A stretch of 24,673 nt of DNA from a virus (taxonomy: Duplodnaviria > Caudoviricetes), in IMG/VR virus record IMGVR_UViG_3300020042_013343, positions 1 to 24,673 of that record; one strand, written 5' to 3'. The notes beneath the pieces were generated by a model. It was given only the letters and a program-made list of their open reading frames with translations. It had not been told where the DNA came from and made no database searches. The position numbers were made by a program, and so were the translations under genes. Of this stretch, positions 2,891 to 22,137 are shown piece by piece (position 1 is the first letter of the stretch; each line of letters starts with the position of its first letter).

Positions 2891-4200
2891 GCACAGAAAA
2901 AATAAGTTTTTGTATTAATACATCTAGGAATGAAATAAATCATGTTAAGTTATTATTTCGATCACTGGAGCAAAATCTATCTACAAAAGAGCATGAGATT
3001 GTAGTATTTATTGATAGCGATAATCAAGGTACTTTTGAATGGCTACTTACACAGAAGAGTATCTTTCCTAATTTAAAGATACTTAGAAATACACTTCCTA
3101 TCTGTTACGGATATTCTAGAAATATTAATGAGATGTTTGAGCAGGCTTCTAATGAGATAGTCTCATTCTTACAATCAGATATGGTAGTGTGTAAAGATTA
3201 TGATTTAGAGATACTAAAAGGACTCGAACCAGGAATGATGCTATGCTCAACTAGAATTGAACCACCTCTACATCCACCAGGCCCAGAAAAGATAACACAT
3301 GATTTTGGATTAGATCCAGAAACGTTTGACTTAGAGACTTTTACACACTTTGCAGAAAAGCATAAAGAAGATAGATTTTCAGTATATTTCTTTGCTCCAT
3401 TTACAATGTACCGAAAAGAATGGCTATCAGTAGGAGGACAGAACACTCTCTTCAGACGATCTAGAGAAGATAGTGATATGTTAATCAGAATGGTATTAAA
3501 TGGAACAAAAATGTCTCAGACTTGGAGAGCATTAGTATACCACTTTACTTGTACATCTAGTAGAGGTCCAAAATGGTTTGATCAAGACAATAAAGAAGCA
3601 CAAGAGCGGTTAAGATATCAACAACTAGCAGACATGTACGAGCTCCATAGATTTATATCGCTATGGGGAGCTTTCAAGCATGGAGACTTAATAGGTAGTG
3701 AATATAAGAAACAAGTCTACTATAATATTGCAGCTAAAATTGACACTACAGGTGCATCTTTGGAGCAGTTTTTAGAATTTGAAAGATTTTTCGATAAGAC
3801 CTATGTACAGGATACTTCTCTAATAGTTCAAACACAGAAAGTTTATGATGATCAACATAAAGCCGCTAACATACTACTAAACATAACCGACGATGTTTGG
3901 GAAGAATATAAGTATATGTACAATACCTTAGATGCATCCTCTAGAATTAAACCTCTCTCAGAATTAGAAGAAGATTCTGTGGATATATTAATAGAGTTTA
4001 GTATAAAAGATGTACATGATAGTTATATTCATGGTTTCTTAGGGCAGCTACAGGACATATTAGATGAGACTGACGATACAGGTGAGTTTAGTTACGGGCC
4101 ATTTACTTTACAAATTAATAATAAGGTAGATAGAGCAAAAGAAAGAGGAATAATAACAAACCCTCAGGTAAAGCCAGAGCATTTATACGAGGTATACTAG
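2887..4200 (+). CDS. Glycosyltransferase family 2 protein with C-terminal extension
   Basis: ISFCI start, EIVVFIDSD, FLQSDM (DxD-like), VGG...REDSD and VYHF; located in the sugar cluster. Confidence 0.72.
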   Translation: MSTEKISFCINTSRNEINHVKLLFRSLEQNLSTKEHEIVVFIDSDNQGTFEWLLTQKSIFPNLKILRNTLPICYGYSRNINEMFEQASNEIVSFLQSDMVVCKDYDLEILKGLEPGMMLCSTRIEPPLHPPGPEKITHDFGLDPETFDLETFTHFAEKHKEDRFSVYFFAPFTMYRKEWLSVGGQNTLFRRSREDSDMLIRMVLNGTKMSQTWRALVYHFTCTSSRGPKWFDQDNKEAQERLRYQQLADMYELHRFISLWGAFKHGDLIGSEYKKQVYYNIAAKIDTTGASLEQFLEFERFFDKTYVQDTSLIVQTQKVYDDQHKAANILLNITDDVWEEYKYMYNTLDASSRIKPLSELEEDSVDILIEFSIKDVHDSYIHGFLGQLQDILDETDDTGEFSYGPFTLQINNKVDRAKERGIITNPQVKPEHLYEVY

Positions 4201-4209
4201 AAACTAAAC

Positions 4210-4217
4210 TATTTATA
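4210..4217 (+). promoter_or_regulatory. TATTTATA motif, candidate phage-sigma (late) promoter
   Basis: 10 nt upstream of ATG 4228; the same octamer lies at 20721-20728 just before ATG 20733. Confidence 0.3.
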
Positions 4218-4227
4218 GTAAAAACAT

Positions 4228-4581
4228 ATGAGCTTGATAAACGAAATAAAAGAGATGTTATCCGAAGTTACAAAAGTAAATTTCAAAGGAAATAAATTTG
4301 TACTTAAGATAGATGTAAACGAAGATCCAAATAAGAAAGGAATCAAAGTACAATTCCTTCCAACTACCTTTGCAGGTATGTCTAAACAACAACAAGACAA
4401 TATCGCTATGGACTTAGGAGCTAAGTTGAATCAAGGACTATCGGCTCTAGGCTTAGCAGTTGAGAGAGACAGAGAACTAAAGGATAAGACGATTGTAGGC
4501 TTCTTTATATATATTGAATACCTAGATAAGATTATTATCAATGCTCTAAATCAAGCAGCAAACGAACCAAGTAACAATTAA
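4228..4581 (+). CDS. Hypothetical protein
   Basis: 117-aa ORF with A-rich start context. Confidence 0.75.
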   Translation: MSLINEIKEMLSEVTKVNFKGNKFVLKIDVNEDPNKKGIKVQFLPTTFAGMSKQQQDNIAMDLGAKLNQGLSALGLAVERDRELKDKTIVGFFIYIEYLDKIIINALNQAANEPSNN

Positions 4582-4591
4582 TTAAAAAGAT

Positions 4592-4804
4592 ATGCCACAG
4601 TTTTGCTTTTATTCAAAAAATAACCACACACAAGAACCAATAGGAGTTGTGTATGCAGCAAGTAAAGAAGAAGCAGTAAAATTCTTCTCATTATCAAAAC
4701 AGTTACCAATAAACGATTTTCTAACAATTTTTGAAGTAAAGAACTACACGTATGGTACACAAGAAGGACTTAAGGAAAACACTAAACAGCTTCTTAAAGG
4801 CTAG
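4592..4804 (+). CDS. Hypothetical protein
   Basis: 70-aa ORF with A-rich leader; overlaps the next ORF by 53 nt. Confidence 0.55.
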   Translation: MPQFCFYSKNNHTQEPIGVVYAASKEEAVKFFSLSKQLPINDFLTIFEVKNYTYGTQEGLKENTKQLLKG

Positions 4805-5162
4805 TATTAGAATAAAGGAAAAGGATATGGCTAGAGAGGTACTCGAAAAGAAGCTCTTCATAGAAAATATCATCCTTTTAAGAGAGATAGAGGATAGGAG
4901 AGACTTCATGGAAGAAGAGATCGGAGTTGATATGTCTATCTACGAAGAAAAGTTTCTACAAATAATAGAAAATCTATTCAAGATACACTTCAGCAAAGAA
5001 CAATTTGCATTAATCCAGTACTACCTATACCAAGTACCTAACATAGACAATTGGGATGGAATGATAGATCTTTCAGATGGAAAGGATATGATTACAGTTA
5101 AGTTTGAAACACCTGAGCAGGTTTGGAATGTAATAACTAGCTTAAAAGAAGTTAAGAAATAG
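4752..5162 (+). CDS. Hypothetical protein
   Basis: 136-aa ORF ending directly before the promoter at 5163; start uncertain. Confidence 0.7.
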   Translation: MVHKKDLRKTLNSFLKASIRIKEKDMAREVLEKKLFIENIILLREIEDRRDFMEEEIGVDMSIYEEKFLQIIENLFKIHFSKEQFALIQYYLYQVPNIDNWDGMIDLSDGKDMITVKFETPEQVWNVITSLKEVKK

Positions 5163-5193
5163 TTGCCTAAGAAGAGTATTGTTCTTATATTTA
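5163..5193 (+). promoter_or_regulatory. Bacteroidota-type promoter TTG-N20-TATATTTA
   Basis: TTG 5163, TATATTTA 5186-5193, followed by GGTAT and an A-rich leader to ATG 5220. Confidence 0.75.
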
Positions 5194-5219
5194 GGTATAA
5201 TTAATAAACAAAAACGGTT

Positions 5220-5621
5220 ATGAATTTAGAAATGATTCCTTGTACAAGATGTGGCAATGATATGCCAAAGCTCCGATTAGACACTTACGGATACGATTTC
5301 TGTGTTAATTGCTCAGATGTAAAACCTAAGGTAGGGCGTATTAGAGTAGTAGGAGAAGGAGACTATACAGTAACAGAGCTAGATATCTTAGATCAAGATA
5401 CTGCTAGAAGACTTCAAGAGCTGGAGAATACTTCAAGAGGAGTAAGAAATGTTCCATTAGAGATCTTAAACTATGACGAAGATGAGATAACAGATGATGC
5501 TAAAGCATTAGATGCTGTTATTGAAAAGACTCTAGACGATGATTTAGAAATCGAAGAGGTAGAAGAAGACTTAGAAGATCTAGAAGATATAGATGATCTA
5601 GAAGACGAAGATGAAGACTAA
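5220..5621 (+). CDS. DksA/TraR-like C4 zinc-finger protein with acidic tail
   Basis: CTRCGNDMPKLRL...FCVNC resembles CxxCGxxIxxxRL...CxxC; C-terminal D/E run. Confidence 0.6.
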   Translation: MNLEMIPCTRCGNDMPKLRLDTYGYDFCVNCSDVKPKVGRIRVVGEGDYTVTELDILDQDTARRLQELENTSRGVRNVPLEILNYDEDEITDDAKALDAVIEKTLDDDLEIEEVEEDLEDLEDIDDLEDEDED

Positions 5622-10172: not shown

Positions 10173-10448
10173 ATGCAAGTATGGGGTATAAATAAATTAA
10201 AAGATCCTAATTCAAATCATATCATAAGGAAGGTAGAGAAGAGAAGGGAACAATTACTACAAAGGGAACAAACTCCTAAAGTAATAAAGGAGTTAAAATA
10301 CCTAGAAGACAGAATGAAGATAGGAACAATGTTACTCAAAAGATGGCATGAAAACCATTTGGCAAACCGTTTGCAAAACCGTTTGCAAAACCGTTTCGCT
10401 AACCGTTTACATAACCAATTGAACAACCGATCCAACCAAACGAAATAA
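10173..10448 (+). CDS. Hypothetical protein whose C-terminus reads through the 12-bp repeats (xNRL)
   Basis: 91-aa ORF; the tail is derived from the tandem repeat. Confidence 0.45.
   Translation: MQVWGINKLKDPNSNHIIRKVEKRREQLLQREQTPKVIKELKYLEDRMKIGTMLLKRWHENHLANRLQNRLQNRFANRLHNQLNNRSNQTK
10350..10433 (+). repeat. Tandem 12-bp repeat block 1 (7 copies, nnnAACCRwtyn)
   Basis: gaaaaccatttg, gcaaaccgtttg, caaaaccgtttg, caaaaccgtttc, gctaaccgttta, cataaccaattg, aacaaccgatcc. Confidence 0.9.
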
Positions 10449-10692: not shown

Positions 10693-10878
10693 AGAACCGT
10701 TTAAAAACACCTAAGAAACCTTCCACAAAACCGATTGGAAAACCGATCTGTAAACCGTTTAGCAAACCGATCACAAAACCGATTGGGGAACCGTTTGGAA
10801 AACCGACTAGCAAACCGTTTGGTGAACCGATCCGTAAACCGTTTGGAAAACTGATTTGGCTAACCGATCTGGAAAACA
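10693..10878 (+). repeat. Tandem 12-bp repeat block 2 (12 copies in strict phase plus flanking copies)
   Basis: AAC(C/T) every 12 nt from 10717 to 10849; extra copies at 10695 and 10862. Confidence 0.92.
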
Positions 10879-10964
10879 AACTGACAACCCTAACAAAAAA
10901 TAAATTAAAAAAAAGTTGCACCGTAGGGAAAAAAGCAGTATCTTTAGGAACTAAAGACAAACAT

Positions 10965-11180
10965 ATGACACATACTCAGGATCTAAACACAGTAATAGGA
11001 AAAGATTGTTCGTGTAATCAATCTCCTACCCTAAGGGCCAAATTAATCTCAGTAGGGAAATATAAAAGTATTGTAGAGGTTAGGCCCACTATGTATAATA
11101 GAGCTCAGTGGAGTAATGCTCACGTAGGGCAAAAAATTACCCTGGACAATTCAATTATTCACAACATGTATTTTTTTTAG
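10965..11180 (+). CDS. Hypothetical protein
   Basis: 71 aa, directly after the 10916 promoter. Confidence 0.7.
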   Translation: MTHTQDLNTVIGKDCSCNQSPTLRAKLISVGKYKSIVEVRPTMYNRAQWSNAHVGQKITLDNSIIHNMYFF

Positions 11181-11184
11181 TACT

Positions 11185-11346
11185 ATGAAAACAATTCAAA
11201 TAACCCTTCAGGAAAGGTGGGCCGCTTCCCAGCACAAAATCCACAAATCAAAAAAAACCTACGACAGGAAAGACAAACATAAAAAAAGAGGATCCCAAAA
11301 GGATCCTTTTTGTTTTTACTTAAATCTTTACTTTCAGTTAAACTAA
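11185..11346 (+). CDS. ArfA-like small basic protein (53 aa; not in the track)
   Basis: MKTIQITLQERWAASQHKIHKSKKTYDRKDKHKKRGSQKDPFCFYLNLYFQLN*; KxxYxRKxKH motif; terminator inside the ORF. Confidence 0.5.
   Translation: MKTIQITLQERWAASQHKIHKSKKTYDRKDKHKKRGSQKDPFCFYLNLYFQLN
11281..11317. terminator. Bidirectional intrinsic terminator
   Basis: A7-G-AGGATCC-CAAAA-GGATCCT-TTTTGTTTTT. Confidence 0.8.
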
Positions 11347-11396
11347 AGCTTTCAGTTAAAGTGTTGATGGAAGTGAAAGTATTGCTTTCAGTTAAA
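11331..11396. repeat. 3 x CTTTCAGTTAAA
   Basis: Exact copies at 11331, 11349 and 11385; degenerate copy at about 11403. Confidence 0.85.
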
Positions 11397-11491
11397 CCTT
11401 TACTTTAAGTAACGAGTGTGGAGCGCTGTCCGGTCTACTCTTCCGAATCTCTCGATCCAGGCCCCTGTCGCATCTCTGCTTTTTCAATACC

Positions 11492-11522
11492 TAAAGATAC
11501 TACCAAAAAACTTCATATGCAA
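11492..11522 (-). promoter_or_regulatory. Minus-strand copy of the array promoter
   Basis: Reverse complement reads TTG-catatgaagttttttggtag-TATCTTTA-GGTAT (20-nt spacer). Confidence 0.8.
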
Positions 11523-11635
11523 CAGTTTGGTAAAAATAATTGTTATTTATATTGATTCTAAATTACCCTTACCTGTTGACCCGTATACCCAAAAGCAGTA
11601 TCTTTACCTCATTAATAATTAAAACGACAAACATC

Positions 11636-12031
11636 ATGATCAACGTTATTAAAAATTTATCGGTAGTACATTACATTGGAGAAAGTAAAGGGTTATTTCA
11701 GGCAGTAGTAAAAGTGCCTGCAGGGTTTATGGTAGCATATGAAATAGGATCTGACATCCCTTCTCTTAATACTTGGAAGAAAGGATCGCTACAAACTTTA
11801 CAATTCAAAAGAGAAGGATCAGCAGCTTGGCTTACAGTATTCGCTAGAAAGGGTAATAAGGTTATTTTAATTGATCAGGCAATTGCTGAGAAATTAGAAG
11901 TAGGAGTAGTTAATTCTTTATTCTACAATACAAACTTAATGGATCACAATCAGTATAAAGCAGTAGGGGCTAGAACTTGGGCTGACAAAGTATTTGTGGT
12001 CAATGAAAATAATTTAGAAAAAGTTGTATAA
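11636..12031 (+). CDS. Hypothetical protein (start revised from 11540)
   Basis: ATG 11636 follows the conserved promoter and leader. Confidence 0.8.
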   Translation: MINVIKNLSVVHYIGESKGLFQAVVKVPAGFMVAYEIGSDIPSLNTWKKGSLQTLQFKREGSAAWLTVFARKGNKVILIDQAIAEKLEVGVVNSLFYNTNLMDHNQYKAVGARTWADKVFVVNENNLEKVV

Positions 12032-12093
12032 AAAGTTGCAAGTAAAGTAAAAAAATAGTATCTTCGCACCATTAATAATTAAAACAATATAAT

Positions 12094-12312
12094 ATGTCAA
12101 AGGAATTTATGAATAACAGAGAGGTTAGGATAACTCAGGAAGGACAAAATGTATTTAGGTTTATTGCAGAGTTATTAAATAACAAGGAATTTGATATTAA
12201 CGGACCTATAACAGATACTTACTTACATGAGGTAGGATGGTTTGTAGGGTTGAGTATTGAAAAAAGGAATAGGGTAATTAAATTCCTTTTATCTAATAAT
12301 TTATTGGAATAA
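12094..12312 (+). CDS. Hypothetical cassette protein
   Basis: 72 aa, after the conserved leader. Confidence 0.75.
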   Translation: MSKEFMNNREVRITQEGQNVFRFIAELLNNKEFDINGPITDTYLHEVGWFVGLSIEKRNRVIKFLLSNNLLE

Positions 12313-12374
12313 AAGTTGCTTCGTATTACTTAAAGCAGGATCTTTAGGTATCAATAATTAAAACAATATAGGTT

Positions 12375-12500
12375 ATGAAAAAAGTTGTACTACAGGGAAT
12401 TACTTACTACGAAGTAAGTTTAGGAGGAGTTTGTTACATGTCCTTCAATCCTCAGGAATTAGTTGTTAGAATGGCACAAGCAAATTTATCTTTAAATTAA
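12375..12500 (+). CDS. Small hypothetical protein (41 aa; not in the track)
   Basis: MKKVVLQGITYYEVSLGGVCYMSFNPQELVVRMAQANLSLN* directly after the conserved leader. Confidence 0.7.
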   Translation: MKKVVLQGITYYEVSLGGVCYMSFNPQELVVRMAQANLSLN

Positions 12501-12506
12501 TTAGTT

Positions 12507-12671
12507 ATGAAAAAGAATTTATCAGTACTATTAGTCGTTACCATGTTTGCAATACTAACATCAGGTTTTGCACTTATGCCCTCAACCTGGGGGTTATTTT
12601 TAAAAGGGTTTGCAGTTTCTTTTTGTTTTTGGGCCTTAATGTTAGCTCCAGCATTTTCTACTGAAAAATAA
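12507..12671 (+). CDS. Small 2-TM membrane protein (54 aa; not in the track)
   Basis: MKKNLSVLLVVTMFAILTSGFALMPSTWGLFLKGFAVSFCFWALMLAPAFSTEK*. Confidence 0.65.
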   Translation: MKKNLSVLLVVTMFAILTSGFALMPSTWGLFLKGFAVSFCFWALMLAPAFSTEK

Positions 12672-12742
12672 TTGTAGAAAAAGTTGCACCGTATTATCTT
12701 TTACAGTATCTTTAGGTATTAATAATTAAAACAGATAAAAAT

Positions 12743-13003
12743 ATGAAAAGTTTAGATCAAGTTAACATTGAGGATATTACCTCAGACAAGAAGTATTTGT
12801 TAGTAGTTTCATTGTATGAAAGATATGGTGATGGAGGAACAGAATCTTACATAGGGACAGGAGATGAAGTTATTGAAGAGATCAAACAAATCTTTGGTTG
12901 GGAAGAGGGAGGAGAAGATGGAGAAGATGATGATTGGGCAGGATTTGTTGAAGAAAGAAATGGTGATGGAGATGATTACGTTGAAGTATTTGAAGTTGAA
13001 TAA
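12743..13003 (+). CDS. Highly acidic small protein
   Basis: About 27 of 86 residues D/E by hand count; conserved leader. Confidence 0.8.
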   Translation: MKSLDQVNIEDITSDKKYLLVVSLYERYGDGGTESYIGTGDEVIEEIKQIFGWEEGGEDGEDDDWAGFVEERNGDGDDYVEVFEVE

Positions 13004-13018
13004 ATTTTAAAAAAGTTT

Positions 13019-13047
13019 AGCGAGACTGTTGTCTCGCTTTACTTTAA
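13019..13047 (+). terminator. Terminator hairpin fused to the promoter
   Basis: AGCGAGAC-TGTT-GTCTCGCT followed by TTACTTT. Confidence 0.7.
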
Positions 13048-13088
13048 TCAGTATCTTTAGGTATCAATAATTAAAATAACAAAACATC

Positions 13089-13694
13089 ATGAGAGTAGTA
13101 GAAACAAAAGTTTACACATTCGAGGAATTATCAGCAACTGCTAAAGAGGTTGCAATCGAAAATCACAGAGACGTCAATACGTATGATGGTTGGTGGGAGC
13201 CTATCTTTGAAGGTATCACAGAGGAAGCAGAGCAAGCAGGATTCCATGTAGGGAATATTTACTTCTCAGGATTTTGGTCTCAGGGAGACGGAGCAATGTT
13301 TGAATACACTACCTTAGGGGATACATTACTAAATAAATTTGTAGATCAGTTGGATCTATCACCTCTAAGAAAGGAATGGTTGAGATCTCAGACATTTGCT
13401 CAAGGTAGAGGTGATCACTCAGGACATTACTATCACGAGAATTGTTGTAGTCATGTTATTGATTTTGAATCTAACTTTGGTTACAATTTCGCTAATATTA
13501 ATTTTTATAATTGGATTAATAGTTTTGCAGATCAGTATGAGGAGTTTGTGATTGCTGAGTACAAATCATTGTGTAGAGAATTGTATAGTAGGTTGAGTAA
13601 GTACAACGACGAACTTACTTCGGATCAGGAAGTTGCTGATACTATTATAATGAATGAATGGGAATTTGATGAGGATGGCAATAATTTTCATTAA
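13089..13694 (+). CDS. FSGFWSQGxGA / HYYHE family protein (paralog 1)
   Basis: Motifs recalled from an uncharacterised phage/ICE family often auto-annotated 'antitoxin of toxin-antitoxin stability system'. Confidence 0.7.
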   Translation: MRVVETKVYTFEELSATAKEVAIENHRDVNTYDGWWEPIFEGITEEAEQAGFHVGNIYFSGFWSQGDGAMFEYTTLGDTLLNKFVDQLDLSPLRKEWLRSQTFAQGRGDHSGHYYHENCCSHVIDFESNFGYNFANINFYNWINSFADQYEEFVIAEYKSLCRELYSRLSKYNDELTSDQEVADTIIMNEWEFDEDGNNFH

Positions 13695-13759
13695 AAAAGT
13701 TGCACCGTATTATCTTTTTCAGTATCTTTAGGTATTAATAATTAAAACAACAAAAAGTT

Positions 13760-13981
13760 ATGGAAAATTTAAAACAGATTGAGGATTTTGTTAAATCATT
13801 TGAAACAATGAATATTGATTTTGATGATTGTGATTCTTTTGAAGATTTTAAACAAGAAGGAATTGAAGAACTTGATTCTTATTTACAAGAGGATTTTGGA
13901 ATAAGTTATGAAGATCTTGATGAAACTTTAAAAAAGAATTTCATTAAGTTATTAAGAAGAGATTGGAATGAGTATTTTTAA
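13760..13981 (+). CDS. Highly acidic small protein
   Basis: About 22 of 73 residues D/E; conserved leader. Confidence 0.8.
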   Translation: MENLKQIEDFVKSFETMNIDFDDCDSFEDFKQEGIEELDSYLQEDFGISYEDLDETLKKNFIKLLRRDWNEYF

Positions 13982-13994
13982 TTAAAAAAAGTTG

Positions 13995-14025
13995 GTGAGA
14001 CTGTTGTCTCACTTTCTTTTTCTTT
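13995..14025 (+). terminator. Terminator hairpin fused to the promoter
   Basis: GTGAGAC-TGTT-GTCTCAC followed by TTTCTTTTT. Confidence 0.75.
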
Positions 14026-14060
14026 GTATCTTTAAGTATTAATAATTAAAACAATAAGTT

Positions 14061-14288
14061 ATGGCAAATTTAGTACAAACAATCGTAGAGAAGTTGACTA
14101 CAGACTTTCAAGGTAAGTTGAATTGTGAAGAACAACGAGCAGATCTATTTGCATATGTTGATGGTGAAGAAAAGAAGATAGTTGAAGTGACTACTGAGAA
14201 GGTGTATTTTGAGGGAGATAGTTTAGGTGTTGATTTGTATGATGTTGATGTACATACGTTAGCTTATCTTAATGAAATTTTAAGTTAA
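14061..14288 (+). CDS. Hypothetical cassette protein (acidic)
   Basis: 75 aa; conserved leader. Confidence 0.78.
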   Translation: MANLVQTIVEKLTTDFQGKLNCEEQRADLFAYVDGEEKKIVEVTTEKVYFEGDSLGVDLYDVDVHTLAYLNEILS

Positions 14289-14350
14289 AAAAGTTGCACC
14301 GTATCATCTTTTTCAGTATCTTTAAGTATTAATAATTAAAACAACAAATC

Positions 14351-14644
14351 ATGTCAAGAAAAATCACAGAGGAATCAATTCAGAATTTTTACAACAGAGC
14401 AAAGTTCAACAAGTCTAATATGTCAGTTGAGATCACAGACGAGGGCTTCCCATTACTAAAACTTCATGGCAATACAATTGCAGGAAGAGATTATAAAGGA
14501 CTTTGGATCACTGATGCTGGTTGGCCTACCAGAACAACATTCGAAAGATTGAATGGCCTAAATGATGTAAGCATCTATACAAAGAGAGGTCAAGTGTATT
14601 TGAATGGTGAGGAATGGGATGGAGAAAAAGTTTATATTAATTAG
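14351..14644 (+). CDS. Phage hypothetical protein (LHGNxIA...GWxTxTTxxRLN type)
   Basis: Motif recalled from uncharacterised phage proteins; conserved leader. Confidence 0.75.
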   Translation: MSRKITEESIQNFYNRAKFNKSNMSVEITDEGFPLLKLHGNTIAGRDYKGLWITDAGWPTRTTFERLNGLNDVSIYTKRGQVYLNGEEWDGEKVYIN

Positions 14645-14655
14645 AAAAAAAATAG

Positions 14656-14683
14656 GCGAGACTGTTGTCTCGCTTTTGTTTTT
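14656..14683 (+). terminator. Terminator hairpin fused to the promoter
   Basis: GCGAGAC-TGTT-GTCTCGC followed by TTTTGTTTTT. Confidence 0.78.
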
Positions 14684-14721
14684 ATAGTATCTTTAGGTAT
14701 TAATAATTAAAACAACAAAAT

Positions 14722-14979
14722 ATGAAAAATTCAGTTACTTCAGAAGTTAAAAGTATTGTTAAGGAATTAGGATTAACTTGGTTTCATGCTTATTCTGACA
14801 ATCGTGTAAAAAATAGTGTAGGGGTTAAGTTGGTTGGAACTTACTTGACTGACGATCAGAAGCAAGTTGTTAAGCAGAAAATGATCGACAAAGGTTTTGG
14901 CTTTCGTTATATCAGAGAAAATGCAAATGGTTGGAGGGGAGATTGTAATGGGACTAGGTTTTGTTTTATTAGAAAATAA
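14722..14979 (+). CDS. Hypothetical cassette protein (basic)
   Basis: 85 aa; conserved leader. Confidence 0.78.
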   Translation: MKNSVTSEVKSIVKELGLTWFHAYSDNRVKNSVGVKLVGTYLTDDQKQVVKQKMIDKGFGFRYIRENANGWRGDCNGTRFCFIRK

Positions 14980-15061
14980 TTTAAAAATAATCGGAGAAAG
15001 TGTTGCATATTAAATTCTTTCTCCGTATCTTTAGGTATCAATAATTAAAACAATAAAAGTT

Positions 15062-15292
15062 ATGGAAAATTTACAAATTACTAAAACAAAACCAGAAGCA
15101 GTATCTTTTTTAGAAGAACAAGGTTATTTACAAGATGTAATAGCAGATATTGAAGGTTTAGATGAAAAAGAACAGATAGGTGTTATTCATGATTGGTTAA
15201 ATGATGTTGATGATTTTTATGAATTGGGTAATTCTTTTGAGATGCTTAATAAACATGCAAAACAAGTTTATAAGTATCTAAAAAATAATTAA
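15062..15292 (+). CDS. Hypothetical cassette protein (acidic)
   Basis: 76 aa; conserved leader. Confidence 0.78.
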   Translation: MENLQITKTKPEAVSFLEEQGYLQDVIADIEGLDEKEQIGVIHDWLNDVDDFYELGNSFEMLNKHAKQVYKYLKNN

Positions 15293-15359
15293 TAAAAAAG
15301 TTGCTTCGTATTACTTAATTCACTATCTTTAGGTATCAATAATTAAAACAATAAAAGTT

Positions 15360-15914
15360 ATGGGTTACTCAACAATGTTAATGGGCAAAGGTTTTGACCA
15401 GCCAAGAAATTCAGTTAAACAAATTATCGAATTTTTAACTAATAATCCAGATCAAACAGAAACTGAGATTCAAGAAAAAGTTTGGGGCTATTACAGATAC
15501 GCTCACAGACAATTAGAGTCGAATAAAAAATATGCAGATCTATTGAGACGAGCTGTCGCTAAGGGTTTAATATGTCGAATTGAGAAAAAGAAAAATCAAA
15601 GTCGATTTGTTTATAGTGTTGCATCTCTAGTAGTTGACAAAGTTGAAGTGGTTGAAAACACTATACAAAATGTTATTGTAATTCCAAGACCTCTTGGTCG
15701 TTTAACTTTGTCAGTAGATGAAGTTACACAATTGTATAATGATAAATTTCTGATCGATAGTATTTTGTTAATGGTCATTAATGGTGACGATACTTGGGAG
15801 AATGAATTTGAAGTTGAGTTTAACAGACAAGACGCTAGAGAGTTTCTTACTGAGTATTTCAGTAATACAAATTACGATCAAAATTTTATTAAAAAAGTTT
15901 TGGAAAAACTTTAG
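15360..15914 (+). CDS. Putative winged-helix domain protein
   Basis: IIEFLTNNPDQTETEIQEKV...LLRRAVAKGLICRIE...RFVYSV has a wHTH-like pattern. Confidence 0.55.
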   Translation: MGYSTMLMGKGFDQPRNSVKQIIEFLTNNPDQTETEIQEKVWGYYRYAHRQLESNKKYADLLRRAVAKGLICRIEKKKNQSRFVYSVASLVVDKVEVVENTIQNVIVIPRPLGRLTLSVDEVTQLYNDKFLIDSILLMVINGDDTWENEFEVEFNRQDAREFLTEYFSNTNYDQNFIKKVLEKL

Positions 15915-15981
15915 AAAAATGTTGTCTTGTATTATTAAAAAGAGTATCTTTAGGTATCAATAATTAAAACAATATAAAATC

Positions 15982-16290
15982 ATGGCTAAAAAAACTTATC
16001 AGGACACTTACGGGACATCATTTCAAGGAGTTGTAATTCAAGCGACTGTTGATCAATTAACTAAAATCTTTGGTGAACCTTACGATAATAATACGGGTGA
16101 GGATAAAGTGAATTTCGAATGGGAAATGGAAACTGACGAAGGGGAAGTATTTACAATTTACGATTGGAAAAATTATCGTCCTTTGAGATCTGATGAAATT
16201 GTAACGTGGCATATTGGAGCTAAATCGAGAAGTATTGCAAGTGATGCAAGTTATGAAATTTTAAGAGAATTAGGAAATTTTGTTGATTAA
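15982..16290 (+). CDS. Phage hypothetical protein (GTSxQG...FGEP...DKVxxEW...TIYDWK type)
   Basis: Motif recalled from uncharacterised phage proteins; conserved leader. Confidence 0.75.
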   Translation: MAKKTYQDTYGTSFQGVVIQATVDQLTKIFGEPYDNNTGEDKVNFEWEMETDEGEVFTIYDWKNYRPLRSDEIVTWHIGAKSRSIASDASYEILRELGNFVD

Positions 16291-16348
16291 ATGTTGCTTC
16301 GTATTAGTTAAAGGAGTATCTTTAAGTATTAATAATTAAAACAGCAAT

Positions 16349-16531
16349 ATGGAAAAAGTATTTGTAAAAGTAGTTGACACAGTTGGGTTGTCACAAGAAA
16401 CTATCAGTAAGATTGAAAATCAGATGGAATACTTAGGTACTGAGGTAGTAAATGAAACTACGTTCTGTGTCCTTGCAAATAGTAAGCAGGAAATAATAAA
16501 AATATTTGACTTCAGATTAAACTTTTTGTAG
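16349..16531 (+). CDS. Hypothetical cassette protein
   Basis: 60 aa; conserved leader. Confidence 0.72.
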   Translation: MEKVFVKVVDTVGLSQETISKIENQMEYLGTEVVNETTFCVLANSKQEIIKIFDFRLNFL

Positions 16532-16596
16532 AAAAAGTTGCTTCGTATTATTAAAAAGAGTATCTTTAAGTATTAATAATTAAAACATATAACAAC

Positions 16597-17382
16597 ATGA
16601 CTAGAATTCAAGTATTACAAGACGCAAGAGCAGAGTGGGTAGAAAAACTTAATGCTGCTAAAGAAACAACAAGTGAGATCTACGCAAGAGAGCAGAATGC
16701 AATCAAAGATGTATTACTTCCTTTCTTTGAAGATTTCAGTGAAGGAGTAATAGTAGAAGTACAAAGAGGATCCGTATACTTTAAAATGTTTGATCCTGAA
16801 AGAGGATATAATAAAGAGATCTTCAGTTTGTATTTGAAAGAAGATTGGAGTGGTGATAGATCTTTCAGAGGAGTTAGTATTTCATACTACACAACTTCAA
16901 CAAATGGTGAAGATACCTGGGAATTGGAAAGATTATTTTTATTAGGAAAGGTAGCAGGAATAGTTAGATGGAAGCAGGATGAAATAGTTGATGCTGCTAA
17001 TAAAGTTAAGCCTGTTTTCAAAGAAGAGTACGAAGTTGCATTCCAGTTACAGAATATGATCAGCACTGCAATCAGTGATATTGATAATAAGATTAGAAGA
17101 TTGACCAGGGAGAGAGTTGAGTTTGATCTCAAGAATGATAGAGTTGAATTTACTGAGGGAAGGAATATTGATTTGAAGTATAATTATTCTCCTAGAGTAA
17201 TATCAATTAAGTTGATCGACTTCAGTAAGAGTGGAAAGAAGGCTACAGCAGTGTTTGAATTTGCACATGGTGGGCATACAAGTAGAGAAGAAAATTGCAG
17301 TGTTGAGAAGATAGTAGACCAGGTTACTTACTACTACCCCAACTACGCCAAAGATACCAAGAGGGAGTTGTTACCCTCTTAG
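16597..17382 (+). CDS. Hypothetical protein (helical/coiled-coil segments)
   Basis: 261 aa; conserved leader. Confidence 0.8.
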   Translation: MTRIQVLQDARAEWVEKLNAAKETTSEIYAREQNAIKDVLLPFFEDFSEGVIVEVQRGSVYFKMFDPERGYNKEIFSLYLKEDWSGDRSFRGVSISYYTTSTNGEDTWELERLFLLGKVAGIVRWKQDEIVDAANKVKPVFKEEYEVAFQLQNMISTAISDIDNKIRRLTRERVEFDLKNDRVEFTEGRNIDLKYNYSPRVISIKLIDFSKSGKKATAVFEFAHGGHTSREENCSVEKIVDQVTYYYPNYAKDTKRELLPS

Positions 17383-17395
17383 TTTTAATTATTGA
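17382..17395 (-). repeat. Inverted copy of the conserved leader (GTTTTAATTATTGA)
   Basis: Exact reverse complement of TCAATAATTAAAAC (for example 17501-17514). Confidence 0.85.
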
Positions 17396-17430
17396 CCAAA
17401 GAGAGAGCTACCTTAGGGTGGCTCTTTTGG
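17396..17430 (+). terminator. Intrinsic terminator-like hairpin
   Basis: GAGAGCTACC-TTAG-GGTGGCTCTT-TT; extendable with CCAAA/TTTGG. Confidence 0.7.
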
Positions 17431-17522
17431 GTTATAAAATAATTTGAAAATAATTGTAAAAAAAGTTGCACCACTTGTATTAATTGAGTATCTTTAGGTA
17501 TCAATAATTAAAACAACAAATC

Positions 17523-17705
17523 ATGACAACAATTAATTCTTACTTTGCAGACAAATTCCCTCACATTAACCTTCAGGGATTAGATCAATCAGTGGTTAGT
17601 GACTTTATGTCCAATACTTACTTAATAGGTTTAGACTTTCCTGAACAAATGGAATGCCTTGCAGATTATATAGTTGCAAATGACTTAACTGAAGTATCAC
17701 TTTAA
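17523..17705 (+). CDS. Hypothetical cassette protein
   Basis: 60 aa; conserved leader. Confidence 0.72.
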   Translation: MTTINSYFADKFPHINLQGLDQSVVSDFMSNTYLIGLDFPEQMECLADYIVANDLTEVSL

Positions 17706-17717
17706 AAACAACAAATC

Positions 17718-18143
17718 ATGACAAAATTATTCAGAGACGTAGATTATTACGTAGTGCAGGCTTCTAACAGCACACAGAGAGAATTTGAATTAGACTTCGC
17801 AGATGTTATAGAGGTCTATGATACAAATTCTATAACACTAACTACTGAAGATAGGAGAGAGGTAGTTATTAGTTGGGATGAGAAAGGTTATTTTAAATCT
17901 TACTTCGTACAGGAAGAAACAATACTAATGAGGTCACATCCTGGGATGGTAGAAGAGATCATTGCAATGTTACAGCATATAGATGTTGATGGAGAAACAC
18001 TACAGTACATTATTGAGAAAGTTGGAATGACAGATCAGATGTTAAGACAACTAGTAATGAATAATCCTTACACTGACACTTCAGATCTATTGAAGGAGAA
18101 AGTAGAACAAGACAATAAGTTAGTAGGAAGAGTTAATAATTAA
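17718..18143 (+). CDS. Hypothetical protein
   Basis: 141 aa; partial leader AAAAACAACAAATC-ATG without a promoter. Confidence 0.78.
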   Translation: MTKLFRDVDYYVVQASNSTQREFELDFADVIEVYDTNSITLTTEDRREVVISWDEKGYFKSYFVQEETILMRSHPGMVEEIIAMLQHIDVDGETLQYIIEKVGMTDQMLRQLVMNNPYTDTSDLLKEKVEQDNKLVGRVNN

Positions 18144-18155
18144 AACATATACATC

Positions 18156-18338
18156 ATGAGGTATTTAAACTACAAATCAAATTACGGAGTTGAAACAGTA
18201 GATTGTTTGGATCAGAAAGATTTTATCTTCTACAGCGATTTCAGAAAAGAATTAATAAGACTTTTGAACGAGCATCGTTTGGCTGGAATGGATGTTTATG
18301 TTAGTCAAAGATGTACAAAAGATTTTAAAAATAATTAG
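18156..18338 (+). CDS. Hypothetical protein
   Basis: 60 aa; leader TTAATAATTAAAAC without a promoter. Confidence 0.72.
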   Translation: MRYLNYKSNYGVETVDCLDQKDFIFYSDFRKELIRLLNEHRLAGMDVYVSQRCTKDFKNN

Positions 18339-18403
18339 TAAAAAAGTTGCACACAAAGTAAAAAAAGAGTATCTTTAAGTATTAATAATTAAAACAACAA
18401 ATC

Positions 18404-18778
18404 ATGAAAAAAGAATTAGTATTACAATCAGTTGAGAATTCAGTTAGTTCAATCTTCACTAAAGAAGATGTTATCAATCTTATCAATTCAATTGAAGAAG
18501 GATCAAGTAGAAAAATTACTCCGTACGATATTGGACGTGCGATTGATAAAACTATTGATTGGATTGAAAATAATCAAGATAATATAGTATGTTTAGATGA
18601 TGCTGAGTTTGAACTCTCTTACGACAATAGAATAGAATGTACGGGAGTAGGATTTTGTACTGACGAGATTAGAGAGGCATTAGAAAATAACTTCATGGAC
18701 TTTGGAGAAGCAGAAGTTGAAGAAGATGATGTAGTTGAGATTGAAAGAGCAGAAACTTCAGAGGAAAATGAATTGTAA
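18404..18778 (+). CDS. Acidic hypothetical protein
   Basis: 124 aa, D/E-rich; conserved leader. Confidence 0.8.
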   Translation: MKKELVLQSVENSVSSIFTKEDVINLINSIEEGSSRKITPYDIGRAIDKTIDWIENNQDNIVCLDDAEFELSYDNRIECTGVGFCTDEIREALENNFMDFGEAEVEEDDVVEIERAETSEENEL

Positions 18779-18786
18779 AAAAAGTT

Positions 18787-18806
18787 GCCTCTTCGGAGGC
18801 TTCTTT
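18787..18806 (+). terminator. UUCG terminator hairpin inside the promoter spacer
   Basis: GCCTC-TTCG-GAGGC-TTCTTT. Confidence 0.75.
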
Positions 18807-18846
18807 GTATCTTTAGTCATTATTAATAATTAAAACATATAACATC

Positions 18847-19047
18847 ATGGAAAAGTTTTTCGAAGAGCAGTTTAAAATGTTGAACAGAGGATTAGTTGCA
18901 ACTCCAAATTCAAGAGAAGATCTTGAAGCATTTGCAAAAGCCAATCAAGGTTCAATGGACATCTTGTTAATGCAAATGGCAATCAACTTTGGATATAAGA
19001 TCGCACTAGAGAATGTTCAGGAACATCTAGAGAAGGAGGTAGCGTAG
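18847..19047 (+). CDS. Hypothetical cassette protein
   Basis: 66 aa; conserved leader. Confidence 0.75.
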   Translation: MEKFFEEQFKMLNRGLVATPNSREDLEAFAKANQGSMDILLMQMAINFGYKIALENVQEHLEKEVA

Positions 19048-19284
19048 ATGGCTGAACAAGATATAAAAGGTAAGTGGACTTTGAGAGCTCCGAATAATAT
19101 TCCCAAGAGCTCTCTCCCTATGTTAGGGATGGTGTATGAAGGTACAAACAAATACTTTGGTGGTCAAGTTGTTGGAATATTAATCCAACTTCACCAAGAG
19201 AATGATGAAGCTGTGCTACAGATGAAAGGAAATAGCCTAGTCTCTGTTGATATAAAAAGTTTAAAAGTAGTTGTCTCGAGTTAA
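19048..19284 (+). CDS. Hypothetical protein
   Basis: 78 aa; abuts the upstream stop codon. Confidence 0.68.
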   Translation: MAEQDIKGKWTLRAPNNIPKSSLPMLGMVYEGTNKYFGGQVVGILIQLHQENDEAVLQMKGNSLVSVDIKSLKVVVSS

Positions 19285-19329
19285 TTAATTTAGTATCTTT
19301 AGGTATTAATAATTAAAACATATAACATT

Positions 19330-19926
19330 ATGAGAACAGTAGAAGTACGATTATTCAGTTTCAGTGAATTATCACCAACAGCTAAGCAAGTAGTATTAGA
19401 CAACTACAGAGACATCCACACACAGTTCGATGATTGGAGTGAGCCTATCCAAGAAGGTTTTAGAGAGAAGGCCACTGAAGCAGGATTCGAAATAGAAGAT
19501 ATATTCTTCTCTGGTTTCTGGTCCCAAGGTAGTGGTGCAATGTTTACCTACAGCAGATTCAATGATAGTATGTTAAAGAACTTTGTTGCTCAACTTACAA
19601 TCAAAGAAGAGGACAAAGTAATTATACTATCACAAGGAGATACATGTGGTAAAGGAATACACAGAGGACACTACTACCATGAGAATAGTTGTGACCATTA
19701 TAGTATGCTGGATAGTACTAATCCTGATTGGGAGTACGCTACGGATCTAATCTCTCAACATGAAGATGCCTTTGGGCAGTATGTGATTGATACTTACAAA
19801 GATCTTTGCAGAGAGTTGTATAGTGATCTAGAGAAGTATTACGAAGAGCTTACAAGTGATGAAGCTGTCCAGGAGTACATCGAAGAGAATGATTATGAGT
19901 TTACTGAGGATGGTTCAATCTATTAA
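19330..19926 (+). CDS. FSGFWSQGxGA / HYYHE family protein (paralog 2)
   Basis: Colinear similarity to 13089-13694 along its full length. Confidence 0.75.
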   Translation: MRTVEVRLFSFSELSPTAKQVVLDNYRDIHTQFDDWSEPIQEGFREKATEAGFEIEDIFFSGFWSQGSGAMFTYSRFNDSMLKNFVAQLTIKEEDKVIILSQGDTCGKGIHRGHYYHENSCDHYSMLDSTNPDWEYATDLISQHEDAFGQYVIDTYKDLCRELYSDLEKYYEELTSDEAVQEYIEENDYEFTEDGSIY

Positions 19927-19933
19927 AATAATT

Positions 19934-19963
19934 AAGCGAGGCTGTTGTCTCGCTTTCTTTTTT
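19934..19963 (+). terminator. Terminator hairpin fused to the promoter
   Basis: AAGCGAGGC-TGTT-GTCTCGCTT followed by a T-tract. Confidence 0.75.
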
Positions 19964-20003
19964 GTAGTATCTTTAGATATCAATAATTAAAACAAGATAC
20001 ATT

Positions 20004-20279
20004 ATGACAAGACAACAATTTTTATCAGGAGTACATTTTACATTAGGATCAGCAAGAAGAGGAGATTCAACTTACAACTACGACGGAAGTGAAAAGGCAG
20101 GTCACATCTCAAGACAGATAAGATCTGCAGTAGATAAAAGAATAGTCCTAGATGATTACGAATGTAACATAAGTAAGATAGGTAGAGTAGGTTTTACAGG
20201 GATTACTTTTGTAATGGGTAAGAAGGTATTGGTTAAACATAGGTTTGCGGACTTAGTAATTTTTGAAGAGGGAGTCTAA
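20004..20279 (+). CDS. Hypothetical cassette protein (last of the array)
   Basis: 91 aa; conserved leader. Confidence 0.78.
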   Translation: MTRQQFLSGVHFTLGSARRGDSTYNYDGSEKAGHISRQIRSAVDKRIVLDDYECNISKIGRVGFTGITFVMGKKVLVKHRFADLVIFEEGV

Positions 20280-20296
20280 CGACTCTCTTTTTTTTT
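20268..20296 (+). terminator. Intrinsic terminator closing the array
   Basis: GAGGGAGTC-TAAC-GACTCTC followed by T9; the stop codon lies in the loop. Confidence 0.82.
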
Positions 20297-20636
20297 GGAC
20301 TTGGAGAGGTGAGCTCGAGGTGATATCACTGTGATGTCAATTTGAAATAAGTTTGATCGTTTATTTCATGCAACGGTTTTCCACGTCGGTTTTCCAGAGT
20401 ACATAGATTAGTGTATTTCTGATAAAAATTAAGATAAAGGGATATATATTTATATACTGTAATGAAATTAAACAAGATGTGGTTATGACCCATACCTCCT
20501 ACTCCAACTTTTTCAAGTTGCGCCTACTATACACTGTTCGACCCTTCGTTGCATAGCATCAAGTTGTTGTCCTGTTATTGTATACTACAGTTGCTACATT
20601 AAGCAAAATTACCACCTATACCCCTTATCTCAATGT
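20297..20636 (-). ncRNA. Candidate non-coding RNA or regulatory region
   Basis: No ORF in the track; minus-strand promoter at 20641-20671; CAACUU-GAAA-AAGUUG hairpin on the minus strand. The 3' end is unknown. Confidence 0.35.
20371..20397 (-). repeat. Two inverted copies of the GGAAAACCG motif
   Basis: Reverse complement is CTGGAAAACCGACGTGGAAAACCGTTG, matching TGGAAAACCGA in block 2. Confidence 0.7.
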
Positions 20637-20640
20637 ATAT

Positions 20641-20671
20641 TTAATATACAACTTTTTTGGTTTTTTTGCAA
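20641..20671 (-). promoter_or_regulatory. Minus-strand promoter TTG-N20-TATATTAA
   Basis: Reverse complement GTTG-caaaaaaaccaaaaaagttg-TATATTAA, 20-nt spacer. Confidence 0.55.
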
Positions 20672-20732
20672 CAATGGTGTAAAAATTTTTTGGAAAAATT
20701 TTGATTATATAAACAGTATATATTTATATAAG

Positions 20733-21140
20733 ATGAAGAAGCTTAGTAGTGCAGATTTATTTAATATATTTTCCCAGCAAGACCACGAGGTATTTGCCGA
20801 TAACGGTATGGTTGAAGAAATAGATAACGACTTTATTACTTTTGGCACTATATTAATAGGGATGCGTAATTATCAAATCCTTGACAATATTTATAGGTAT
20901 CGCTATGAGGAACAGTACGATAGCGTTAAAGATCAGTTGCAATTGAAGTATTTTGACTCTGTTATGAGATATGCCAGTAGAATCGATCAATTAAGCTTAG
21001 ATACGGTAAATGACCTCAATGATGAGTTTGGAAAACAAGAGATAGTAGGTATGTTAAATTATTTAATACAGTTTTACCAACAACAAGAGCATTACGAAAA
21101 GTGTGCAGTTATTTTTAAACTTTTACAAAAATTTATGTAA
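20733..21140 (+). CDS. Hypothetical protein with C-terminal ExYEKCA (UVR-like) helix
   Basis: 135 aa; QEHYEKCAVI. Confidence 0.7.
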   Translation: MKKLSSADLFNIFSQQDHEVFADNGMVEEIDNDFITFGTILIGMRNYQILDNIYRYRYEEQYDSVKDQLQLKYFDSVMRYASRIDQLSLDTVNDLNDEFGKQEIVGMLNYLIQFYQQQEHYEKCAVIFKLLQKFM

Positions 21141-21146
21141 AAAAAG

Positions 21147-21177
21147 TTGCTATGTAATGTATAATTGTGTATATTTA
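21147..21177 (+). promoter_or_regulatory. Promoter TTG-N20-TATATTTA
   Basis: AAAAAGTTGC then TATATTTA at 21170. Confidence 0.7.
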
Positions 21178-21202
21178 TGTATAATTTAAAAACAAAAAGG
21201 TT

Positions 21203-21400
21203 ATGGGAACATTAATTTTAAACATTTTAATCCAATACGGTGCTATTGGATTTATTTGCGCAGCAATTGTAGATTTTACAATTCGTACAACAAGGTCGAG
21301 TGAACCATTCACTCTTACAGAGATCTTAGGGACTGTTATTGCTTGGCCCCTAATACTAGGTGCTTTTTTAACTTCTATGTTTGAAGATTTTTTCAACTAA
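21203..21400 (+). CDS. Small 2-TM membrane protein
   Basis: Two hydrophobic segments. Confidence 0.7.
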   Translation: MGTLILNILIQYGAIGFICAAIVDFTIRTTRSSEPFTLTEILGTVIAWPLILGAFLTSMFEDFFN

Positions 21401-21416
21401 AAAAAATATAACGGTT

Positions 21417-22049
21417 ATGTTTAAAGATAAGATAAGCCTTTCGCAGGCCATGTCTCTTGAATTAATAGGAGAGATTATAATTGTTGATTGTTCACCAGAG
21501 TCTATTTTACCTTACCCTAAGGTAGGAAAAACTTGGAAGGAAAACTTCATCAAGCTTCAATCAAAGCATAGGCATATATCTCCAGATAAACTCCTTACCT
21601 TTCTATCGGCAAAATACCTTATAGAGGTTGCTGAGGGTATAGTAGATAAAGATGCTAATACTTACTCGTGGAGATACTTTCACGGTATAGAAAATTCCAA
21701 GATTTTAGACAAGTCAAAAGATAATATCGAGTATGTGTATATCCTAGTAAATGCAGGGTATCCAAACCTTGTTAAGATAGGAATGACAATTACAACAGTT
21801 GATGCCAGAGTAACGGGATTAAACGCCTCTAGTACGGTAGATGAATGGGTTGCAAAATTTGCTTTACCTGTTGAAAAGGGATCGGCGTATAAAGTGGAGC
21901 AGGCCGTGCATGCTTTCTTTGCCTCGCAAAGGGTTTCGTCGGATCAAGGAGGTTCTCGAGAATTCTTTGAAGTAAATCTATTAACAGCTTTTGATAAAGT
22001 AAGGGAAATAGGAGCGATGTTTGCCGTAGGGAATCCAATTGTTTATTAA
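21417..22049 (+). CDS. T5orf172 (GIY-YIG-like) domain protein (start revised to 21417)
   Basis: YVYILVN...LVKIGMT...R...EQAVH...REFF. Confidence 0.8.
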   Translation: MFKDKISLSQAMSLELIGEIIIVDCSPESILPYPKVGKTWKENFIKLQSKHRHISPDKLLTFLSAKYLIEVAEGIVDKDANTYSWRYFHGIENSKILDKSKDNIEYVYILVNAGYPNLVKIGMTITTVDARVTGLNASSTVDEWVAKFALPVEKGSAYKVEQAVHAFFASQRVSSDQGGSREFFEVNLLTAFDKVREIGAMFAVGNPIVY

Positions 22050-22106
22050 GGGATTTTGTAAAATTGCGCGGTGTTAAAACTTTTTTAAAAATATTTCGCC
22101 GTTTTG

Positions 22107-22137
22107 TTGCTTACCTCGTTTTTTGTTAGTATCTTTA
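22107..22137 (+). promoter_or_regulatory. Promoter TTG-N20-TATCTTTA
   Basis: TTG 22107, TATCTTTAGGTAT at 22130. Confidence 0.75.

Follow-up and report, generated by a model that had tools for sequence, protein, structure and literature searches.

The window analysed here is the whole 24,673-nt stretch of viral DNA (IMG/VR record IMGVR_UViG_3300020042_013343). All of its genes are on the plus strand, and the minus-strand element studied here sits where an array of small ORFs begins, and every ORF of the array has a near-identical promoter in front of it. The closest annotated relative over the element is Flavobacterium phage immuto_2-6A of the genus Immutovirus (72.6% identity over 64% of a 501-nt query), whose genome is nearly all one-stranded and has the same gene order around the element. 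The array (10916-22107, plus strand) is composed of about twenty near-identical promoter-plus-leader cassettes with a small ORF after each, and resembles a host-takeover early region. Paralogous 200-aa early ORFs are located at 13089-13694 and 19330-19926, and the first of them had no Pfam match. Just before the array, in a zone largely without genes, there are two tandem arrays of a 12-bp unit (10349-10429 and 10727-10877). Another 12-bp-like array occupies the same place in immuto_2-6A, and this zone is possibly a genome-end or origin region.

Promoter, predicted transcript and convergent gene

The promoter pattern of the array has 25 sites on the plus strand and one site on the minus strand in the whole window. 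The minus-strand site is a Bacteroidota-type early promoter (11522-11492) with TTG at 11522-11520 and the -7 box TATCTTTA at 11499-11492, and its spacing is the same as that of the 25 plus-strand promoters. The -7 consensus used for scoring is a presumed form of this motif. The initial annotation had placed a minus-strand consensus promoter back-to-back with the array promoter at 11576-11608 (plus strand), which serves a 131-aa ORF at 11636; this was confirmed, the site being the sole minus-strand match in the window. It is also true, as annotated, that the A-rich translation leader seen after most array promoters is missing here. Transcription would start near 11488, and the predicted RNA would run to about 11281, giving 208 nt if both estimated ends are correct. 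Its 5' leader (11488-11466) differs in length and sequence among relatives. As had been noted, the first ATG, located at 11473 within the leader, opens only 12 codons (11473-11435, with the stop at 11437-11435). This mini-ORF was rejected as the product of the locus because it is not conserved; an ATG is found in 39 of 85 leaders.

At the other end, a hairpin resembling an intrinsic terminator (11281-11317) folds on both strands (z -2.06 and -3.71), which agrees with the bidirectional terminator of the initial annotation, and the 3' end of the predicted RNA is placed near 11281. The stability of the 213-nt stretch is ordinary in a single-sequence fold (z -1.13). ARAGORN found no tRNA or tmRNA gene (a cloverleaf or tRNA-like domain with T-arm and CCA end). 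No Rfam 15 family matched the element at its gathering score; the window had two weak matches, both elsewhere, and the 17 matches obtained across 18 relative loci were all far under the cut-off. The Infernal comparison that had been proposed thus assigned no family to the window or to the 18 relative loci. Resemblances to rRNA, RNase P, SRP, ribozyme and riboswitch motifs were weighed and rejected, being without Rfam support.

A basic ORF of 53 aa (11185-11346, plus strand) converges on the element. One of its homologues carries an ArfA label from its source. However, Pfam ArfA matched none of 29 proteins comprising the ORF and its homologues, so ArfA membership was rejected; a weak match to DUF7230 was found for the ORF and in 20 of 28 homologues. 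Because the frame continues across the bidirectional terminator, an mRNA ending there is expected to have no stop codon. An mRNA that is ended before its stop codon by a terminator is a mode of control of ArfA and BrfA. The C-terminus is encoded by the terminator hairpin in many homologues of the ORF, not in some. The predicted RNA is antisense in its 3' part to the tail of this ORF, as annotated, with an overlap of 66 nt between the RNA and the frame, and a homologue of the ORF is head-on to the conserved core in 43 of 54 Immutovirus-type loci with enough flank. The element might accordingly be an antisense RNA or a transcriptional-interference partner of the convergent ArfA-like gene, but we consider this very unlikely: the shared hairpin is predicted to end transcription from either side, which would leave an overlap of about 35 nt in the terminator, the conserved core is outside the overlap, and the larger class of the family adjoins genes other than the ArfA-like ORF.

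A conserved core with a covarying hairpin

Relatives of the element keep the promoter and a core of about 50 nt (11468-11417, minus strand), and their leader and tail are variable. The core is composed of GGGC, one or two bases, a hairpin, GGAAGAGUAGAC, seven variable bases and YRC. The core model R1 scored 56.7 bits at 11417-11468, its sole strong match in the window, with this sequence being part of the training set. The hairpin (11460-11443) has the arms CUGGAUC and GAUUCGG; it is present as annotated, with the GAGA loop and two G-U pairs. The most conserved segment, GGAAGAGUAGAC (11444-11433), is largely unpaired, and GURGAC varies least in it.

Alignment A1 holds 65 members from 107 distinct candidates, after chance-looking, truncated and near-identical rows were dropped. 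The members were gathered with patterns containing the core, so invariance of the core is partly built in. When seven bases of the core were left free in the pattern, AGTAGAC was still found in 21 of 52 loci, and the other 31 looked unrelated by eye. GTAGAC was found in 51 of 54 model hits, a count biased by the model itself.

The hairpin covaries. Double-change cells numbered 75 in the 65-row alignment against 17.6 in shuffles, and none of 500 shuffles was as high; five of the eight pairs are changed on both sides, and 89% of cells are paired, compared with 32-49% in slid controls. On 54 paralogues, in an alignment fitted by the model, the values were 49 and 16.7, and RNAalifold recovered four pairs of the same hairpin unaided. 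Covariation among homologues, a check suggested with the initial annotation, is therefore strong, though the minimum-energy fold of the single window sequence omits the GAGA hairpin. Because the 65 aligned rows had passed a folding filter, the pairs were counted again without it: 26 distinct hairpins gave 130 cells, of which 93 were Watson-Crick, 24 G-U, 8 A-C and 5 other. These counts favour the minus strand as the RNA, if one is made; the wobble pairs would also suit displaced single-stranded DNA. The GNRA loop, which the initial annotation had stressed, is present in the window but is not conserved: only 8 of 29 hairpins have one.

The 3' half of the core is less clear in structure. The U of GUAG is opposite A or G only, at YRC, in all 65 rows, which gives one consistent U-A/U-G pair of a short 3' helix; its other pairs are weak. 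A closing helix, in which the 5' G-run would pair with the 3' end, was no better than slid controls across the family. An alanine-tRNA or tmRNA mimic was considered for the acceptor-like helix with a G-U third pair in the fold of the window sequence and was rejected, as this helix is unsupported across the family. In the UCC class described below, the 3' half might form a pseudoknot; none can be drawn for the CGG/GGG class, to which the window belongs.

Family, copy number and the downstream dyad array

Two patterns, scanned over viral and metagenome contigs, gave 146 distinct members, a count that takes in near-identical strains, with several records near-duplicates, so that independence is overstated. 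Of these, 52 belong to the class of the window (CGG/GGG after the core) and 94 to the larger class (UCC), and the two classes share only about a dozen positions. The larger class exposes UCC in a loop, which is replaced in the class of the window. A -7 box is located upstream in 49/50 members of the window's class and 74/93 of the UCC class. On the opposite strand the counts are 2 and 11, and shuffles have a box in 8-13%. Likewise, 53 of 54 model hits, paralogues from 11 regions, have a promoter box within 40 nt upstream, and an ORF of at least 40 aa starts nearby in only five of the 54. The next ORF is head-on in all 32 loci of the Immutovirus-type class; in the UCC class it is on the same strand in 24, on the opposite strand in 24, and missing in 9. 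This arrangement counts against a cis-acting leader. The element has its own promoter-like site, no conserved ORF and a conserved structure, as would a phage-encoded sRNA of the general kind. Conservation, covariation, strand-specific wobble pairs and promoter association give the proposed early non-coding RNA good support at the sequence level, but the emphasis on the GNRA loop and the repeats was wrong.

A second model found 1-12 copies per record among 36 records chosen for having at least one copy; 16 of the 36 have 2-12 copies, in both orientations. A complete 288-kb genome has nine copies, a 40-kb fragment 12, one further record five and Tenacibaculum phage Larrie three. Larrie is a cultured carrier, as is immuto_2-6A, which has a single copy. 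The hairpins vary among copies, and the core is constant. Convergent pairs of copies 0.4-1.2 kb apart are frequent (G192 28755-29199, G193 4080-5385 and G171 24812-25987). Two Immutovirus-like contigs, L088 (205-240 and 894-926) and L108, carry two cores about 700-800 bp apart, one of which has no repeats and is directly followed by a terminator. A possible distant variant of the core, with a sigma-70-like promoter and another 3' half, was seen in L207, L213 and L268, which are outside the alignment.

Within the genomes searched, the element is restricted to phages. Among 151 sampled Bacteroidota genomes, 150 had no match and one had a weak match without the GUAGAC core. Of 50 pattern matches in GTDB genomes, 43 were rescored and eight exceeded 30 bits, all on MAG contigs of at most 27 kb, which are probably binned phage DNA. 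A chromosomal gene was rejected on these grounds.

The initial annotation also pointed to three exact 12-mers, which are present at 11396-11385, 11360-11349 and 11342-11331, within 66 nt. With up to one mismatch, the 12-mer is found nowhere else in the window, where 0.65 would be expected, and three copies are reached in 4 of 100 shuffles when a mismatch is allowed. The 12-mers are part of an array of imperfect dyads with an 18-bp period (11322-11411), which is limited to a lineage. Of 46 loci in the class to which the window belongs, 31 lack the exact 12-mer, 4 have one copy, 7 have two and 4 have three; a looser dyad pattern has no match in 22. A sister lineage (L111, L112, L131, L165 and L173) keeps the RNA core with a different repeat downstream, and the head-on ERWAA ORF was not found in those of its loci looked at. 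Since neither the GNRA loop nor the triple 12-mer is conserved, a multivalent repeat sponge, as proposed initially, is not what the family preserves. The features annotated earlier are all real but were wrongly weighted; the conserved part is the 5' core, and the 12-mers are likely a separate, lineage-limited feature.

The dyads are specific to the locus, which holds all five matches in the window and four of five in the 160-kb immuto_2-6A genome. Half-site spacing is identical in 195 of 195 pairs, although tandem duplication alone would give this too, and 57 distinct dyads have 25 different spacers. The flanking positions are often unpaired, with C-C at one position in 35 of the 57. As judged from these sequences, binding by a dimeric DNA-binding protein, or slippage, would explain the array better than RNA stems would. 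The simplest view of the 12-mers is that they are an array of DNA sites for a dimeric protein, or a minisatellite that arose by slippage and is crossed only incidentally by the transcript.

The whole element might instead be a transcription-coupled DNA element acting in cis, in which the promoter and the folded nascent RNA or displaced strand lead to an R-loop or a pause. It would prime replication, or mark a genome end or recombination site, and the dyads would be the site of a phage protein. We regard this as unlikely. The sole minus-strand promoter match in an all-plus window, with immuto_2-6A almost wholly one-stranded, is in line with it, as are the locus-specific dyads with their fixed spacing, variable spacers and frequent mismatches, the 12-bp tandem arrays 400-900 bp away, and the AT-rich tract that follows the core in 47 of 94 members. 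However, 12 copies in 40 kb and nine in a complete genome are many for origins or ends, nearly half of the related loci (22/46) lack a dyad even by the looser pattern, and no inversion of GC skew was found at the element in immuto_2-6A, where one-sided coding limits the test.

Candidate functions and relation to known systems

The initial annotation compared the RNA with ToxI mimics and RNA anti-CRISPRs, and by that comparison the three 12-mers would act as a sponge for Cas proteins or a type III toxin. In line with this, 66 nt hold three exact copies, and the promoter-start junction shares 14 nt, just outside the query, with one CRISPR repeat (L733); the matching leader start, AUUGAAA, opens 28 of 85 leaders. 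However, 57 of the 85 begin otherwise, the exact 12-mer is missing from most loci of the class (31/46), and the repeat of the sister lineage is different. Against 35 distinct Bacteroidota repeats, taken from 40 of 50 cas2 loci and representing neither the true host nor type VI arrays, none of five queries scored above shuffles, and 93-196 of 200 shuffles were as good for the 12-mer, the 31-nt unit, the core and the whole RNA. The CRISPR family of Rfam did not match the element either. The type III antitoxin comparison was also negative: there was no Rfam ToxI match, and ToxN, the one type III toxin family searched for, exceeded the cut-off in none of 201 Bacteroidota genomes, nor in 14 control genomes, so that the sensitivity of this search is not shown. 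We therefore consider ToxI or CRISPR-repeat mimicry by the 12-mers extremely improbable.

Known phage systems of similar kind differ from the element. The Racrs (PMC10651486) and rAcrIIA1 (10.64898/2026.06.03.729762) are phage RNAs that mimic CRISPR repeats or the Cas9 guide. They share with our element the idea of a small phage RNA as a decoy for a host protein, which here is only a proposed mode, but the element shows no similarity to the 35 repeats and has no copy of its core in the 151 host genomes. The pseudo-ToxI of phage PhiTE is described as a non-coding locus with repeats of variable copy number (PMC3475682), which holds for our locus as well. ToxI and pseudo-ToxI are tandem pseudoknot repeats, whereas the window has poorly pairing dyads of 18-bp period without an Rfam family, and the repeat is not the conserved part. 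In the T4-type phages RB49 and phi1, the PeSL cassettes described in PMC2839356 have a stem-loop in or before the promoter that terminates upstream transcription, and a 3' end consisting of a ribosome-binding site and a start codon. Like our element, they combine a promoter with a stem-loop and recur in the variable early regions of large phages; in ours, however, the structure is downstream of the -7 box and the predicted start site, and a gene follows in only 5 of 54 cases.

A parallel in organisation suggests base pairing. FopS of Bacteroides thetaiotaomicron comprises chromosomal multicopy sRNAs with shown mRNA targets, in which a single-stranded seed at the 5' end precedes a terminator hairpin (PMC11697453). 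As in FopS, our family consists of paralogous short RNAs (predicted ones here) in Bacteroidota, each with a primary-sigma promoter and a constant segment, and with a possible dose effect. The constant segment may then be a seed that represses host or phage mRNAs. The UCC displayed in a loop in the larger class fits a seed, and a 22-nt part of the core forms weak duplexes with 11 phage translation starts, 5 of 60 shuffles being as good. In contrast to FopS, the element is phage-borne, its covarying hairpin precedes the constant segment, and neither the order of 5' seed and terminator hairpin nor a match to the FopS/GibS family model, or to any in Rfam, was found. The UCC loop is replaced in the window's class. 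A complement or copy of the core (18 of 21 positions, either strand) was found in 5 of 61 Bacteroidota genomes versus 13 of 61 for a control pattern, so no enrichment was seen on either strand, and the core is constant across phages of Flavobacterium, Tenacibaculum and others, while mRNA targets would drift. We thus give a seed-type sRNA a low probability.

The reading that we tentatively prefer, at somewhat less than even confidence, is a trans-acting early sRNA that titrates a host protein and is expressed from a stand-alone gene of an Immutovirus-like phage. Host RNA polymerase would start near 11488 and stop near 11281, and transcription would be early. The 50-nt core, the hairpin followed by the GUAGAC-containing segment, would then likely act in trans as a decoy, binding and titrating a protein common to Bacteroidota hosts. 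We favour a decoy because the copies are multiplied in both orientations, because their hairpins vary freely around a short segment that stays fixed, and because neither a downstream target in cis nor an enriched complement in host genomes was seen. Multiple copies with variable hairpins and a constant core are the pattern expected if dose matters. The general idea of a decoy in the initial annotation thus survives, moved from the repeats to the 5' core, while its ToxI and CRISPR analogies fail.

A bolder form of this reading is possible, but we hold it to be doubtful. The RNA would be a phylum-wide, RNA-only factor for host takeover or anti-defence, in which a structured RNA of 50 nt titrates a conserved host protein outside the known targets of phage RNAs, for example an immune protein that senses RNA or a core factor of transcription, translation or RNA decay. 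Its carriers would be podo-, sipho- or myophages and jumbo phages of Bacteroidota, with up to a dozen promoter-driven copies.

To our knowledge, few families of phage small RNAs have been recognised, and the decoys described so far imitate an RNA of the host. Unlike these, the present RNA has no detectable host counterpart. The sequence evidence indicates that it is a real, and probably undescribed, family of putative phage sRNAs. Literature searches, which reached a minority of the subscription papers, found no description of it. In a catalogue of viral structured RNAs, a comparison confined to the text supplements found neither the motif nor six sample ids (PMC10690425), and it is possible that the RNA has been catalogued before, for example there. 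Phages that are only distantly related, all from one major phylum of aquatic bacteria, share the element and have multiplied it in their early regions, a pattern that suggests strong selection on its dose. If the decoy reading is true, identifying the partner would reveal a host factor which many Bacteroidota phages have to neutralise. Since immuto_2-6A and Larrie are cultured, expression and partner are directly testable. In the GenBank record of immuto_2-6A, a 32-aa hypothetical protein is annotated over the element on the opposite strand (L071 7982-8080), and this is probably a spurious call.
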